Of a stretch of 64,000 nt of DNA, positions 44,184 to 50,977 are shown one piece after another. The translations under genes were made by a program, and so were the position numbers. Below the pieces are notes generated by a model. The model saw only the letters and a list, made by a program, of their open reading frames with translations. It did not search any database and was not told where the DNA came from. This DNA comes from Candidatus Micrarchaeia archaeon (lineage in GTDB: Archaea > Micrarchaeota > Micrarchaeia > Micrarchaeales > CABMGC01), in contig JBMFHL010000001.1 of assembly GCA_049976845.1 (NCBI GenBank), positions 32,001 to 96,000 on the forward strand, read 5' to 3'. How positions within the stretch are numbered: the first letter of the stretch is position 1; every line of letters starts with the position of its first letter.

Positions 44184-44395
44184 TCTGTCACAGCAAACTA
44201 CTATACTATTTTACAATCCTGCTTATAAATTTAAACAATGACATATTTTAACGACAAATCCTAAAAATAAAGATACCAATATATAACTTACGCATTAATT
44301 ATCTTTAAACATCTCTGCATAATCTTATAGATGCTTAGATAGACAATAAATATACCAAATGCATAAATATACAAGAATGAATTAGGTAGGTGAAG

Positions 44396-47300
44396 ATGTC
44401 TTTGCTGCTTGTAATAATAGAGGCTTTTTTCTCAATAGTAGTGCCAGGAGTATTGTTATCACTTGCACTGCTTAAGAAGACAAAACTCCCTATGTTTGAG
44501 ATAGTTGTGATAGGCTTCATACTCGGGCTCATCTTCCCTCCAGTGATGGTATGGCTTGAATCCTACTTAATCCCTTACATACATGTTTTTTCATTTTCGG
44601 GTTCGCTTTACAACATAAATGTTGTACTGCTTACTATATTAGGTATAATACTGTGCTTTCAGCAGAAAGTATTTACCAAGAATCAGATTAAAAAACTCCT
44701 TGGCCCAGAAAGCTCAGAATCAGAAGCAAGGCAGAAATATATCGCATCTTCGAAGGAGAGCATAGCATTGCTGAGAAATGAGCTTTCAGAGATAGGTATA
44801 GGTTTAGAGTTGACCAAAAAGCACGAAGCAGAGGAAAAGGAGCTTGAAAAGAAGCATGAAACAGAAGAAACCCTTCTTTCAAGCATGAGTGAAGAAGAGA
44901 GAAACAAAATCTTAAACCTTCACAAGGAGGAAGAGAGGAAGCTTATAGAGGAGCACGAAGCAGAGGAAAAGGAGCTGCTAAAAGTACACAAGGAAAAGAA
45001 AGAAGCAGGAATGCCGATAGTGTGGACTATACTACTGCTTCTAATGGCGCTTTCATTTGTGACAAGAATAGTAAACATAGGCGTAGCTCCAAACTATTTT
45101 GAATTCGACCCTTACTATGACATGATAAGTGCGCAATATATATTGACCTACGGGTACCAGTTGTTGTATGACCATTCTGCGTGGCCCACGCTTGCAAATG
45201 GAACAATACACAGAATACAGCCGATAGTGCCATACCTAGAAGCATACTGGTACGATTTAGCGAATACACACGCAGCGTCAGCGACTAGCGTAGACACAAC
45301 ACTATTAAGCTTGGTAAGCAGCTATTACCCTCCAATCATGGCAGCACTGCTAGTTTTTGTGGTATTCATGCTGCTCTATCACGAATACGGCCGCTTCCCA
45401 GCATTGGTAGGTGCTTCGATTGCGGCAAGCATGCCGGCGCTGATAACTACATTTATTGCAGGAGAGCAGCTGCTTGAGCCTTGGGGTATCTTTGCGATGT
45501 TCTTCTTCTATGCTGCATATCTGCTTGCCGTGAATAACACGAAAGAGAAAAGGTTTGCAGTACTTGCAGGCATAGCCTATGCATCAACATTCCTCGGTGC
45601 CCACTACTATACAGTTACTGCTGGGGTACTGGCAATATATATAGTGCTCCAAGGCATAATACACGTTCTCAAGAATGAAGACATGCGCGAGTTTTACAAG
45701 GTAAACGCAATTGTAATAGCAGTGTTCACAATATTCTATCTTTTATACATGCCCTACTCAGCAACGCTAACCGAAAGAATTCCAAATGTGATAGGCATAC
45801 CCGTAATAATCGCATTTCCTCTCTTTGCGCTGATATTTGCCTTTGTATTAGAATATCTGTCCAGAAGGTATTCAAAGCTTATAGAAGGAAACAAAGTAGC
45901 TATAGCAATAGCATCTATAATCTCAATCATAGGCATATTTGTAATAGCAGTCGAAGTGCTTCTGGGCAGGTTCAATAAAGATATAAAAGCGCTATCTAGG
46001 TTCAGCGTTGCATCGGTTCTAGGCTTTATAATACTCCTTCTAATACTCCTGACTCCGCTAGGCAAGCCTGTAGACAAATACGTTGCATTGAGCACACATT
46101 TCATAACGCCTTCAATACCTTTGTTCATGACGGTGCAAGAATATGAACCGACAGGCATAAACTTCAATTTTGGCTCTGCAGGCTTCGGTATAATAGGTTT
46201 GAGTATAGGTGGCGTTAATATATTGTTGTGGCTTATACTTGCGTTATTCACTGCATTTGAGCTTGCCGCAATATACTACAGGAATTCAAGGATAAGCATA
46301 CTGATGCTTGCTGCTGTTTGGCCTCTTGCAATAGCTGGTATGGTAGAAGTGAAATACCTGCCACACTTCGGTGTAGGTTACATACTTGCAATTGGCGTCA
46401 TAATAGGAGAACTTATAATGTTCGTAAAGAACGGCTATAGCTTTAATCCTAAGAAATCTGAGCCTTACAATAAACAGGCACTTAACGGACTCTATGCGAT
46501 AAGCATATTTGTAATCTTATTAGAAGCCACTTCGCTAATCTCTGTATTCTCAGCAGCAATGAATCAAAATTGCAATGCAATAATTTCAAGCAACAATGCA
46601 ATAGGATATGATTTGTTCTGCAATCAAGTGCCTAACTACTGGCTTTCAGCAACCAACTGGATGCGTGCAAATGTCGGTCCTTTCGGGCCAAGAATACTAT
46701 CCTGGTGGGACTACGGCGACTGGATTAACTGGTTCGGAAACAGCAACGCAGTGCTCAGAGGGGACAATGCAGTTGCGACACTAGACTATGCAACCGCAGC
46801 TCAATATGTTCTAGGTCCAGCTGATGGTTTCGGTGCCGGAGAAATTGCCAATTTCATGAATAATGTTGTGCAAGCTAAATATCTACTATTGGATGATCAA
46901 ATAATGCCTAAATGGGGTGCCCTCGACTTCCTTGCATGCATAGATGTAAACGAGACAAGTATGCAGTATGCCGAAGCACAGGGCGCAGCTGAGAATCCGC
47001 CACAGCCTTATGCGCTTGGCACTTCTTCGTGCGAACTGAATCACGATCCCATATTTGCATTGGTTCCATTTAATGCAACCAGCATAAGCAGCTACTGCCA
47101 GTTTTCAAATTCTACAGTAACAGCAGTGAAGTTGTTGCTTCTGACGGGCAATCAGCAATATGTAAATGGCACCTACTGCCTGCCGACAAGCTTTTACAAT
47201 TCTACAAAACCTGTTAACTTATACAATTCAAAAGGCGTAAAAATAGCCAACGCGTTTATAATACCCAACGGGGAGTTCTACTATGGTCCCGTAAAAATTT

Positions 47301-47587
47301 ACGGGCAGGAATTCCTTGACTTTATGGTTGTATATACCCCGAATGGGCCAAATGAAACGATAACGAATGCGCCATCAGAGTTCTATTCATCAAACTATTA
47401 TAGGGGCTTCTTCTTCGGAAAGCTACCCGGGTTCTCCCTAGTGTATCCAAAGAATTTTACAGGCATAAACTATATCAACTCTACAAACCCTATAATGATA
47501 CTTCAGCTTAACAACTATTCAGGTAAATTACCATACGTAACCCCAAAGCCAAGCTGGGTAAAAAATAATTACACAATGCCTGGTTGA
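44396..47587 (+). CDS. aglB: Oligosaccharyltransferase AglB (STT3) with N-terminal extension
   Basis: EFDPYY, TVQEYEP, WWDYG.W, multi-TM core; followed by a GT4 gene. Confidence 0.9.
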   Translation: MSLLLVIIEAFFSIVVPGVLLSLALLKKTKLPMFEIVVIGFILGLIFPPVMVWLESYLIPYIHVFSFSGSLYNINVVLLTILGIILCFQQKVFTKNQIKKLLGPESSESEARQKYIASSKESIALLRNELSEIGIGLELTKKHEAEEKELEKKHETEETLLSSMSEEERNKILNLHKEEERKLIEEHEAEEKELLKVHKEKKEAGMPIVWTILLLLMALSFVTRIVNIGVAPNYFEFDPYYDMISAQYILTYGYQLLYDHSAWPTLANGTIHRIQPIVPYLEAYWYDLANTHAASATSVDTTLLSLVSSYYPPIMAALLVFVVFMLLYHEYGRFPALVGASIAASMPALITTFIAGEQLLEPWGIFAMFFFYAAYLLAVNNTKEKRFAVLAGIAYASTFLGAHYYTVTAGVLAIYIVLQGIIHVLKNEDMREFYKVNAIVIAVFTIFYLLYMPYSATLTERIPNVIGIPVIIAFPLFALIFAFVLEYLSRRYSKLIEGNKVAIAIASIISIIGIFVIAVEVLLGRFNKDIKALSRFSVASVLGFIILLLILLTPLGKPVDKYVALSTHFITPSIPLFMTVQEYEPTGINFNFGSAGFGIIGLSIGGVNILLWLILALFTAFELAAIYYRNSRISILMLAAVWPLAIAGMVEVKYLPHFGVGYILAIGVIIGELIMFVKNGYSFNPKKSEPYNKQALNGLYAISIFVILLEATSLISVFSAAMNQNCNAIISSNNAIGYDLFCNQVPNYWLSATNWMRANVGPFGPRILSWWDYGDWINWFGNSNAVLRGDNAVATLDYATAAQYVLGPADGFGAGEIANFMNNVVQAKYLLLDDQIMPKWGALDFLACIDVNETSMQYAEAQGAAENPPQPYALGTSSCELNHDPIFALVPFNATSISSYCQFSNSTVTAVKLLLLTGNQQYVNGTYCLPTSFYNSTKPVNLYNSKGVKIANAFIIPNGEFYYGPVKIYGQEFLDFMVVYTPNGPNETITNAPSEFYSSNYYRGFFFGKLPGFSLVYPKNFTGINYINSTNPIMILQLNNYSGKLPYVTPKPSWVKNNYTMPG
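44820..44976 (+). repeat. 25-nt direct repeat within aglB (44820-44844 and 44952-44976)
   Basis: AGCACGAAGCAGAGGAAAAGGAGCT twice, 132 nt (44 codons) apart, encoding HEAEEKEL. Confidence 0.85.
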
Positions 47588-47588
47588 T

Positions 47589-48734
47589 ATGATGAAACTT
47601 GTGCTAGCGCAGCCCTACCTGACATTGAAGGGTGGCGCAGAGAGGGTAATACTCAAGATAGCGCAGCATTACGATGCCAAAATATATACAACAGAGTATA
47701 ACAAGGAAACAACCTTCCCAGAATTTGCAGATGTTGACATAGAATTAATAAAAAAGAAGGTCCCACTTTCAGGCATGCTCCCATACAGGGCATCGCAAGG
47801 CCTTAGATACGGCTACACTTTTTATAATACAAAAATAAAAGACGACTACGACTTGATAAATTCACACATATCTCCAAGTGAGTGGATAAGGCACAAAAAT
47901 AGCAGCGTGTTATGGTACTGCCACACACCTCCTAGAGAGGTGTATGATCTCTATTCTGTAAGAATGAAAAATAGGAGCTACACCGAGAAGTTCATATATG
48001 CGACGCTAACCAATTCATACAAGTTCATAGCTAATAAGGTAGTAAAGGAGCTTGAGGGCATAGCAACAAATAGCAACAACACCGCATCGCGCATCAGAAA
48101 ATACTTCGGCAGAGAAGCAACTGTAATAAATCCTGCTGTAGACTACAAGAAATTCAAGGACGAAGGAGACAGCAAATACTTCCTATATCCCTCTAGGATA
48201 ATATCAAACAAAAGGCAGGATTACGCCATAGAAGCGTTCAAAAAATTCGAGAAGAAAGTAAAAGGCTACAAGCTCATAATTGCAGGTGTAGTTTCAAAGG
48301 ATAAGGAGCACATCGAATATTTCGAGAAAATAAAGCGCATTGCAGATGATAATGTAGAGTTCAAAATAGGCATAAGCGAGCAAGCAATGCTAAACCTATA
48401 TTCAAAGTCTACTGCAGTGTTGTTTGCAGGCATCAACGAAGATTTCGGTTATGTGCCCCTGGAAGCGATGGCAAGCTACAAGCCTATAATATCAATAAAC
48501 GAGGGCGGCCCTAAAGAAACAATAGTAGATGGAGAAACAGGCTATCTAGTAAATTCAACCGACGAAATGGCTTCTAAAATGCAGTTCATAGCAGAACATC
48601 CTTTAATTGCAGCTGAGATGGGAAAGAAAGGCAGGAAGCGCGTGGAGGAAAAGTACAATTGGGAAGTATTCTTCAAAAAATTTGATAAGCTTGCATTGAG
48701 CGTAATCAAAGAGAAAAGAGAAGAGAAAGAGTGA
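47589..48734 (+). CDS. GT4-family glycosyltransferase
   Basis: GGAERV, YCHTP, KRQD, EDFGYVPLEAMA, GGPKET...TGYL. Confidence 0.9.
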   Translation: MMKLVLAQPYLTLKGGAERVILKIAQHYDAKIYTTEYNKETTFPEFADVDIELIKKKVPLSGMLPYRASQGLRYGYTFYNTKIKDDYDLINSHISPSEWIRHKNSSVLWYCHTPPREVYDLYSVRMKNRSYTEKFIYATLTNSYKFIANKVVKELEGIATNSNNTASRIRKYFGREATVINPAVDYKKFKDEGDSKYFLYPSRIISNKRQDYAIEAFKKFEKKVKGYKLIIAGVVSKDKEHIEYFEKIKRIADDNVEFKIGISEQAMLNLYSKSTAVLFAGINEDFGYVPLEAMASYKPIISINEGGPKETIVDGETGYLVNSTDEMASKMQFIAEHPLIAAEMGKKGRKRVEEKYNWEVFFKKFDKLALSVIKEKREEKE

Positions 48735-48743
48735 AGGATCTAA

Positions 48744-49040
48744 TCAAGAAGTAATAACATATTTTGATATAACCTTAGTTGCATACCCTAAGACTCTCTT
48801 TATATCTGCTTCAGTGCTAGAACCTGTGCAGATTAGTTTGCCATTCTTGAACAGTATTATAACAGCCTTTGGCTCCTTTATCCTAAATATCGCTCCAGGG
48901 AACTGCTCAGGCTCATAATCTACCTCCTTCACGTTCTTAGACAAAGCATATAAATCTATAGTAGCGTGAAGATCCGAGCTAACCACAATATTTTGTATCT
49001 TTATTGCAGGTTTCATGTTTAATACGCGTTTCTGTTCCAT
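48744..49040 (-). CDS. Single-repeat (half) TATA-binding-protein domain protein
   Basis: IQNIVVSSDL...IDL...YEPEQFPGAIFRIKEPKAVIILFKNGKLICTG is one TBP repeat; 98 aa, then stop. Confidence 0.85.
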   Translation of the reverse strand: MEQKRVLNMKPAIKIQNIVVSSDLHATIDLYALSKNVKEVDYEPEQFPGAIFRIKEPKAVIILFKNGKLICTGSSTEADIKRVLGYATKVISKYVITS

Positions 49041-49321
49041 GGAATCAAATATTTTATTGCTGTAACAGTTTATTAATCTTTCTAAAGGTAGTGCTTTGTT
49101 GATTTAATCTGCTTTATCAGCGAACTTTGCCTTTTTCAACTAAGCTTAAAGGTGAGAGTATTCCTCATCCAAAAGCAAAATCAATCAGAATCCTTAATTT
49201 ATCTCTCAAAAATTAGAAAGATATAAAAACATTGCCTGCATAATAATATCAAGTATATGAATCTATACCCATCAAAAATTCAAAAGCAAATTTTTCTTTC
49301 TACTTATAAATTGGTGATATA

Positions 49322-50977
49322 ATGGCTGAAAATCAAATTGGCGCAGGACAACAGTATCTAATACTCCCAGAAGGAGCAACAAGACTTTTGGGAAGGGAAG
49401 CACAGAGGACTAACATAGCAGTAGGCTATGCAGTAGCTAGTGCAGTAAAAACAACATTGGGACCTAAAGGCATGGACAAAATGCTGGTAAGCGAGCTTGG
49501 AGACATAGTTATAACAAATGACGGAGCAACCATACTTGAAGAGATGAATGTAGAGCATCCTGTTGCAAAAATAATGGTAGACATAGCCAAAACGCAGGAC
49601 AAAGAAGTCGGCGATGGCACAACGACTGCAGTTATCATAGCAGGGGAGCTTCTGAAGGCTGCGGGAAATTTGATAGAGCAAGGCATACACCCAACTACGA
49701 TAATAAAAGGATATAAAATGGCAGCATACAAGGCTCAAGATATTTTGCGTGAAAAAAGCTTTGACATATCTATGGACAATGAAGACAAGCTTGAGAAAAT
49801 AGCAATGATAGCGATGGGCTCAAAGAACATAGGCAGCGACAGCACAAAGAAATATCTTGGCAAGCTCGCAATACAAGCAATAAAGCAAGTCTCTGTACAG
49901 AATGATGGCAAAATCTCAATAGACCACGACTTCATAAAACTAGAGAAGAAGGAAGGTGGCAGCATAGAAGACACCGAATTTATAAATGGCGTTCTTATAG
50001 ACAAGGAAATAGCGCATCCTGGCATGCCAAAGCAAGTGAAGAATGCAAAGATAGCATTGCTTGATGTGGCATTGGAGATAGAGAAGACAGAAACAGATGC
50101 AAGAATTGAGATAACAAGTCCAGAGCAGATGCAGTCGTTCCTTGCGCAAGAGGAAAAGATGCTAAAGGAGATGGTAGATAAGATAGCAAAGAGCAAGGCC
50201 AACGTGATCTTCATACAGAAGGGCATAGATGACGTTGCACAGCATTACCTTGCAAAAGCAGGAATACTTGCCGTGAGAAGGGTTAAGAAGAGTGACATGG
50301 AGAAGCTCTCAAAGGCAACGGGGGCAAACCTTGTGACAAGCCTTGACGATCTCAACCCAGAAGATTTGGGCTATGCAGGAATAGTAGAAGAGCGCAAGAT
50401 TGGCGGAGAGCAAATGGTCTTCGTAGAAAAGTGCAAGGATCCAAAGAGCGTCACAATATTCATAAGAGGCAGCACCCAACAAGTAGTTAATGAAGTAGAA
50501 AGGTCTTTGAACGATGTAATAGGTGCATTGTCAAGTGCTGTGGAAGAAGGCAAGTATGTGATAGGTGGCGGCAGCATTGAAGTTGATATAGCAAATGGCC
50601 TCAGATCTTACTCTAGTGATGTAGGTGGCAGAGAACAGCTAGCAATACAGGCGTTTGCGGATGCAATAGAAATAGTGCCGAAAACTCTTGCCGAAAGCGC
50701 GGGCATGGATGCAATAGACACCTTGGTACAGCTCAGGAGCAAGCACAAGGGCTCAGAAGGCCGTGTATACGGCGTAGACGTATTCAAAAATGCTATAAAT
50801 GACATGGAGAAGCAGGGTGTCATAGAGCCGCTAAAGGTAAAGGAGCAAGCAATAGCAAGTGCAAGCGAAGCATCAGAAATAATATTGCGCATAGACGACA
50901 TGATAAGTTCTAGGAGCAAAGCCCCTTCGGGCCCAGCTCCAGGAGGCGAAGGCGGCATGGGTGGCATGGAAGACTAA
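49322..50977 (+). CDS. Thermosome (group II chaperonin) subunit
   Basis: [40 protein letters not shown] tail. Confidence 0.96.

Follow-up and report, generated by a model that had tools for sequence, protein, structure and literature searches.

The window, that is the whole stretch of 64,000 nucleotides of DNA analysed here, carries on its reverse strand an intact, ATG-initiated open reading frame for a protein of 98 amino acids with a single TBP repeat. In the following this gene is named type B, and a further one-lobe gene on contig C2 of the same assembly is named type A. The features at the type B locus are these:

47589..48734, forward strand: GT4 glycosyltransferase gene, convergent with type B (Pfam Glycos_transf_1, 102.8 bits)
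48744..49040, reverse strand: type B single-lobe TBP gene (open reading frame, PF00352, AF2 model, Foldseek, 28 orthologues in two families)
Type B protein residues: S1 17-20, H1 30-36, S2 40-42, S3 49-54, S4 59-64, S5 69-72, H2 77-94 (AF2 model)
49069..49077, reverse strand: TATA-like box 'attaataaa', read from the sequence, 28 nt upstream of the type B ATG
49078..49083, reverse strand: BRE-like purine run 'agaaag', abutting the TATA-like box on its upstream side
49322..50977, forward strand: thermosome gene, divergent from type B across a 281-nt spacer (Pfam Cpn60_TCP1, 601.9 bits)

The Pfam search assigned exactly one PF00352 repeat to the type B protein. Residues 13-94 align to positions 2-85 of the 85 profile positions with 86.2 bits (E 1.3e-24), above the gathering score of 22.9, so that a full repeat is present, as the initial annotation had stated for this frame. 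When the whole assembly was searched with PF00352 in six frames at E ≤ 10, no TBP match other than type B came up on this contig, and hence no second or frameshifted repeat beside it, which agrees with the earlier reading that no frameshifted remnant is visible. The distance between the end of the GT4 gene at 48734 and the type B stop at 48744 was measured as 9 nt, close to the roughly 10 nt first given. Ten NCBIfam models of full-length TBP (PRK00394) were applied as well; the best of them scored type B with 87 bits, and all have higher cut-offs (181-347). Type B lacks the two tandem repeats per polypeptide that define a canonical TBP.

An AF2 model of type B built on 25 orthologues reached a mean pLDDT of 79.5, with S1 as its least confident part, and shows the element order S1-H1-S2-S3-S4-S5-H2 of a helix-grip lobe. 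In a Foldseek search of the PDB with this model the top 44 matches (E ≤ 0.001) were all TBPs, with TM values of 0.65-0.74 over the query and of about 0.4 over the target, as is to be expected for half a TBP. The canonical archaeal TBPs of S. acidocaldarius (1MP9), P. woesei (1PCZ/1AIS/1D3U) and M. jannaschii (2Z8U) have the same repeat fold and element order; their two lobes are both matched by type B (E 1e-35 to 1e-38), and the Phe pair, the Asn-x-Val of S1 and the acidic stirrup are common to them and to type B. Nevertheless, a canonical TBP comprises two repeats per chain and type B only one, so a saddle would have to form in trans.

The promoter-like sequence 'agaaag attaataaa' (49083-49069) is preserved in six of six same-genus orthologues, with the BRE-like part in the form 'aRaaag', and its flanks are divergent. 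Thus the BRE/TATA-like element that had been described upstream of type B is present and conserved. We take 'agaaag' to be a BRE on the basis of the general archaeal promoter consensus, and the combined element presumably serves as the type B promoter. The thermosome gene has a BRE/TATA-like element of its own, 'agaaag atataaaaa', at window positions 49215-49229 on the forward strand, about 93 nt 5′ of its ATG. This near-identical word lies 130 nt from the type B element and implies a 5′ leader of about 65 nt.

Among the type B loci that were fetched, an orthologue of the GT4 gene is found in 17 of 19 from family f1, to which the genome belongs, and in 10 of 10 from its sister family f3. The thermosome gene adjoins type B in 14 of the 19 loci from f1 (where it is missing, in five, the flanking sequence is absent in three) and in none of the ten f3 loci. 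According to this, the thermosome gene is a neighbour of type B only inside the genome's own family, and the GT4 gene is a neighbour across the order. The GT4 gene is itself preceded by a forward-strand frame for a multi-pass membrane protein of 1065 amino acids (window 44390-47587), which ends 1 nt 5′ of the GT4 start and gave no Pfam match at E ≤ 0.01. This protein has a WWDYG-type motif, presumably the oligosaccharyltransferase signature of AglB/STT3, and an acidic, Glu/Lys-rich insert close to its N-terminus. Its orthologues stand before GT4 in most f1 loci, and the two genes may constitute an N-glycosylation pair.

The neighbourhood of the thermosome had led to the suggestion that type B is linked to stress. 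One form of this idea makes type B a regulator or antagonist, which would form non-productive heterodimers with type A or compete for TATA boxes or TFB, perhaps under stress together with the thermosome. The promoter region shared with the thermosome gene in most loci of family f1 and the 'agaaag' plus TATA-like element of both promoters speak for it. In family f3, however, type B is highly conserved and the thermosome gene is never its neighbour, and no stress element was identified. The proposed stress link is therefore unsupported by the locus, where it is the GT4 gene that is kept in both families.

One-lobe TBP genes in the genome and its relatives

The assembly (731 kb in 52 contigs, about 90% complete) contains exactly two PF00352 matches in a six-frame search at E ≤ 10, each with a single repeat, namely the window gene and C2:19591-19839. 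The latter belongs to type A, a frame of 102 amino acids (L001:1474-1782) whose product is 48% identical to type B. The same search found no two-repeat TBP in this assembly of about 90% completeness, and closed relatives, for example G032, G039, G115 and G023, have none either. Thus the separate full-length TBP that the initial annotation had considered is not found; in its place stands a second one-repeat gene that had gone unnoticed. The search for TFB genes in this genome yielded one. Types A and B resemble each other in length and motifs, and purifying selection acts on both, but type A occupies the L21e/RpoF locus, where the class as a whole has its TBP gene, and may be a genome's sole TBP gene, whereas type B lies beside GT4, was found only in f1 and f3, the two families sampled from this order, and is absent from several f1 genera.

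TBP matches were obtained in all 41 genomes of the order sample. Reciprocal phmmer scores divided the fetched frames clearly into 30 that are A-like and 28 that are B-like. In 33 of the 41 genomes a single type A gene and a single type B gene occur, each at its own locus; in the closed genomes G032 and G039 both lie on one contig, hundreds of kilobases apart. Seven genomes have a single match, and one (G024) has two adjacent matches. A search with the type B protein at E ≤ 10 found only type A and no type B in G009, G023, G115, G016 and G017. Two of these five re-searched genomes, G023 and G115, consist of a single contig, and type A alone thus suffices as TBP where type B is missing. A single genome, G011 (88% complete, about 80 contigs), yielded type B without type A.

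A second repeat is present at none of the 28 orthologous type B loci, so relatives do not carry a full-length TBP at this position, the finding that would have pointed to a recent truncation. The search for single-repeat homologues and their synteny returned 28 orthologues in two families with the GT4 neighbour kept. A truncated pseudogene, a misassembly or bin contamination might be suspected in a draft assembly of this contig number and completeness. But the same single-repeat gene stands in the GT4 context in 27 further genomes, closed ones included, no second repeat occurs at the locus, and type B is under strong purifying selection (see below), which leaves an artefact with a negligible probability.

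The first ATG, GTG or TTG of four f3 type B loci (L047, L053, L056, L058) falls within the conserved N-terminal part of the lobe; the frame is open and similar further upstream, and another start codon may be used. The bin of the same-genus genome G006 holds, besides A and B, an ordinary divergent two-repeat TBP of 188 amino acids on a 3.7-kb contig (L040 = G006:C77). Compared with A and B it reaches a score of only 38-61 bits, and its lobes fall among those of outgroup TBPs, so that it was set aside as probable bin contamination.

In the class sample (genomes at least 85% complete) a TBP match was found in 148 of 151 genomes. By a hand count over the 151 genomes, 62 have exactly one match. 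Among the matches listed, 42 genomes from families f5, f10, f13, f14, f16 and f19 have adjacent matches inside one frame of about 185-223 amino acids, and in 44 genomes two or more matches are separate single-repeat frames. These tallies take in G038, which is flagged as unpublished; no claim depends on this genome alone. The phylum-level sample of 121 genomes contained none from outside the class and left the picture unchanged. Family f8 (G063:C1 with L064-L066, G069, G072, G109, G116) has two to three separate single-lobe TBP genes per genome, which form a clade of their own (support 98) and look like an independent expansion of lobe genes.

The type A gene adjoins the genes for L21e and RpoF and lies upstream of the pelota gene. 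The L21e gene, in many cases accompanied by RpoF, is likewise found next to the only single-lobe gene of families f6, f7, f8, f11, f21 and f24 and next to the two-repeat TBP in the six families with adjacent matches in one frame. Since type A shares these neighbours with TBP genes across the class, it is the positional TBP orthologue and type B the relocated copy.

Conserved residues, selection and lobe character

Identities between families f1 and f3 are 60-86% for type B, 51-66% for type A and 43-55% for GT4. Values of pN were 0.07-0.25 for B and 0.07-0.28 for A, and pS was 0.69-0.96, which is saturated even within the genus. As a consequence a dN/dS ratio could be computed for no more than two of the 18 type B pairs and seven of the 15 type A pairs, where it was 0.03-0.15; elsewhere pN is far smaller than pS. 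Both types are under strong purifying selection, and the dN/dS near 1 that a decaying gene would show was not observed.

The motifs named in the initial annotation, i.e. both Phe positions (F47 in QFPG, F64 in LFKNG), the N17-I18-V19 strand and the acidic stirrup Y42-E43-P44-E45-Q46-F47, proved invariant or nearly so among type B orthologues: F47, F64 and E43 are each kept in 28 of 28, E45 in 27 of 28, N17 in 24 of 24 and V19 in 24 of 26. The stretches Y-E-P-E-Q-F-P-G-A-I and L-F-K-N-G-K are likewise invariant or nearly so in type A, in other single lobes and in both lobes of the two-repeat TBPs of the class. The Phe pair and the Asn and Val of S1 align with their equivalents in 1AIS and 1MP9. 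The DNA-contact roles of these residues follow the general picture of TBP and published work (PMC7221094). E43 and E45 align with the C-lobe positions C.L3.2 and C.L3.4, whose residues contact a conserved Arg and Thr of TFB/TFIIB (PMC7221094). Glu occupies these two positions in 86% and 84% of outgroup C lobes and in 28% and 55% of outgroup N lobes. Because all lobes of the present set keep the C-lobe-type Glu, any dimer of them would be expected to carry two TFB-competent stirrups, unlike outgroup TBPs with their Glu-poor first position in the N lobe.

The conservation of all DNA- and TFB-contact residues bears on the antagonist reading, under which a loss of such contacts would be expected. 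Together with the missing thermosome neighbour in f3 it makes a regulator or antagonist improbable, and this proposal of the initial annotation was not adopted. The same residues weigh against a role outside initiation, in which a lone TBP-fold domain would act on another nucleic acid in the manner of the RNase HIII N-domain or the monopartite proteins of Thermococcales. Single TBP-fold domains with other roles do exist (PMC3597702), and type B gives a weak match of 19.8 bits to the RNase HIII N-domain family DUF3378. This match lies under the 27-bit cut-off and the identity was rejected, given the far stronger match to PF00352, the 38-42% identity to lobes of solved archaeal TBPs and the invariance of the TBP-specific stirrup and Phe motifs. 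A role outside initiation is accordingly very improbable, slightly more so than antagonism.

Residues specific for type B are I13, Q16 and V20 in the S1 region, H25, A26, T27, S34 and V37, F52 and R53 in S3, V60, I61 and I62 in S4, and V83, L84, Y86 and S92 in H2; these about 17 positions, which distinguish B from A, map to S1, H1, S3, S4 and H2. The consensus of type A is identical in genomes with and without type B, which suggests that type A may still homodimerise independently of B.

N- and C-lobe profiles trained on half of 89 outgroup TBPs classified 43 of 44 C lobes and 42 of 44 N lobes of the held-out half correctly. The C minus N score had a median of -5.9 bits for type A (C>N in 0 of 29), of -4.8 bits for other single lobes (0 of 21) and of -1.9 bits for type B (5 of 28). 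In the two-repeat TBPs of the class, the medians were -4.0 and +0.4 for N lobes and -1.1 and +4.4 for C lobes. The shift of B against A has the same sign and about the same size as that of C against N lobes within the class; it is small (about 4 bits), and the B median is still slightly N-like. Of the 10 NCBIfam full-length models, 8 aligned B best to their C half and 6 aligned A best to their N half.

Origin of the paired lobe genes

A tree built by a quick method from 159 lobes and 104 columns unites every lobe of the class in a single clade (support 98) and keeps the outgroup TBPs outside it. Among the outgroup the N lobes stand apart from the C lobes; in f16/f19 the two kinds of lobe fall together (98). 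Type B forms a clade (99) with a long stem inside an A+B clade (98); in a tree of 93 rows the corresponding supports were 99 and 79. That A and B are each other's nearest relatives favours duplication of a homodimeric lobe. Topologies compatible with fission of a two-repeat gene were compared by AU tests, for which the groups were chosen after the tree had been seen. They were not rejected: holding the class C lobes with the outgroup C lobes cost 36 lnL units (p 0.086), placing B with class and outgroup C lobes 44.5 (p 0.076) and placing B with class C lobes 22 (p 0.20). The two lobes of the class two-repeat TBPs are 45-72% identical to each other, and those of the 89 outgroup TBPs have a median identity of 39%. 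We lean towards the view that type B arose when a single-lobe gene was duplicated at the base of the order; its descent by fission from a symmetric gene with two repeats is a serious but clearly less probable alternative.

Four proteins of 195-196 amino acids (P0001-P0004) are two-lobe TBPs whose lobes, both of type A, are 82-88% mutually identical. For P0001 and P0004, the two that were placed in the tree, both lobes nest within the type A of family f1. In G024 (L012:1483-1896, reverse strand) an A-A tandem is cut by the contig end, and the terminal part of the first lobe that can still be seen has the same sequence as the terminal part of the second; for this tandem an assembly artefact is possible. 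Taken together, these cases suggest that the single-lobe gene has very recently been duplicated in tandem and fused. They show that type A lobes function as pairs and that the duplication and fusion of a lobe is a recurrent event. For P0003, one of these natural A-A fusions, an AF2 model made with no alignment had a pLDDT of 46.5, too low for use.

P0033, a single lobe of 127 amino acids, is B-like in its first half (QNIVVSADLH...) and A-like in its second (CKIHEPKTALLLF...GAKTEADIRKAI), which points either to natural recombination or to a chimeric assembly. The database proteins P0014, with four eukaryote-like TBP repeats in an exact tandem of a whole TBP, and P0015, with three repeats, are both likely gene-model or assembly artefacts.

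Proposed pairing of the lobes and its significance

The textbook TBP is one chain of two lobes and is presumed to have arisen by duplication and fusion of the gene for a homodimeric one-lobe ancestor. The direction of archaeal transcription is set by contacts of TFB with the BRE. Since one lobe is half of a DNA-binding saddle, type B must pair. What the sequences establish is the gene with its fold class and conserved contact residues, the purifying selection, and the A/B paralogues with their distribution; dimerisation, the choice of partner, DNA binding and TFB binding we infer. That the partner is type A, with B as one subunit of a two-chain TBP saddle, is in our estimate an even prospect.

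In such an A:B complex type B would pair through the S1 edge strand and the H2 helix, giving a mildly asymmetric two-chain TBP. Each chain would supply one Phe pair (F47 and F64 in B) for kinking the TATA box, and N17 and V19 of B would contact the central minor groove. Either stirrup, in B by means of E43 and E45, could recruit the single TFB, whose contacts with the BRE would then determine in which direction transcription proceeds. Besides A:B, the homodimers A2 and B2 may occur. Because type A alone suffices in several genomes, A2 homodimers should be functional as TBP. The A:B dimer is favoured on account of the finding of B as sole type only in the incomplete G011, the shift of B towards C lobes, the presence of one TFB and a general prior, according to which duplicated homomers often yield heteromers of paralogues (PMC1895999). 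A clear division of labour between the stirrups is argued against by the TFB glutamates, which both A and B retain.

Haloarchaea with multiple TBPs and eukaryotes with TBP-related factors possess extra copies of a basal factor, which may serve subsets of promoters. By analogy, type B could pair with itself, and the symmetric B2 dimer would serve some promoters as an alternative TBP beside a general A2. This is possible but distinctly less probable than pairing with type A. Every DNA- and TFB-contact residue is kept in B, and the B-specific changes cluster in the DNA-facing sheet (S1, S3, S4) and in H2, where they could alter promoter preference and self-packing. The constancy of type A with or without B fits such a B2 dimer too, as does the long stem of the B clade followed by high conservation, the pattern expected of a new function, and a B2 dimer is equally conceivable after duplication of a homodimeric lobe. 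On the other hand, the incomplete G011 is the one genome in which B alone was found, a single TFB is available as partner, and two lobes with 48% identity and a generic edge-strand interface in common are expected to cross-dimerise unless this is selected against; moreover, the C-lobe-ward shift of B fits the role of a partner. The initial annotation had proposed a symmetric homodimer resembling the ancestor before duplication. Its premise that the lobe must dimerise for a saddle holds, but the picture fits type A better, since several genomes, closed ones among them, have no other TBP gene; for type B, pairing with A is at least as likely.

Alternative TBP paralogues are complete two-lobe proteins, except for the single-domain TbpA; here the paralogy concerns single lobes, and two genes allow three possible dimers. 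Brindefalk et al. 2013 (PMC3597702) describe stand-alone frames of less than 150 amino acids with a single TBP domain from Halobacteria (TbpA) and Thermococcales. Type B resembles these monopartite proteins in its size, its one TBP domain and the lack of an adjacent domain, and like them it is no misannotated TBP. Each of them is tabulated beside at least one full-length TBP of the same genome, and the Thermococcales group is strongly diverged from TBP (PMC3597702). Type B differs in that its genome has no two-repeat TBP, in its close relationship to TBP and in the occurrence of two paralogous lobes together. The DPANN surveys consulted do no more than list TBP as present (PMC8407392; 10.1101/2021.01.12.426361). 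Searches of the main text of open-access papers found no description of one-lobe TBPs as the sole TBPs of a lineage or of an A/B pair, and the lobe alignments of PMC7221094 might contain such sequences.

The archaeal lineage described here appears to rely as a whole on one-lobe TBPs, and we know of no described living organism that depends on these alone. For annotation this has the consequence that one-lobe genes stay below the cut-offs for full-length TBP, and pipelines may call TBP missing or "partial". Three states are found within one lineage: a single lobe gene, a pair of lobe genes that have diverged, and two-lobe genes that have freshly re-fused. As small, expressible proteins the lobes make it testable whether a symmetric TBP with TFB and the BRE alone is enough for directional initiation, what the asymmetry of N and C lobes contributes, and by which route a homomer becomes a heteromer and then a fusion. 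Tentatively, and at somewhat less than an even chance, the lineage may be seen as a replay of the origin of TBP, in which a homodimeric lobe is the sole TBP in many genomes, type B has, in one order, drifted towards the C lobe and would pair with type A to restore an asymmetric two-chain TBP, and recent, almost perfectly symmetric tandems have re-fused elsewhere.
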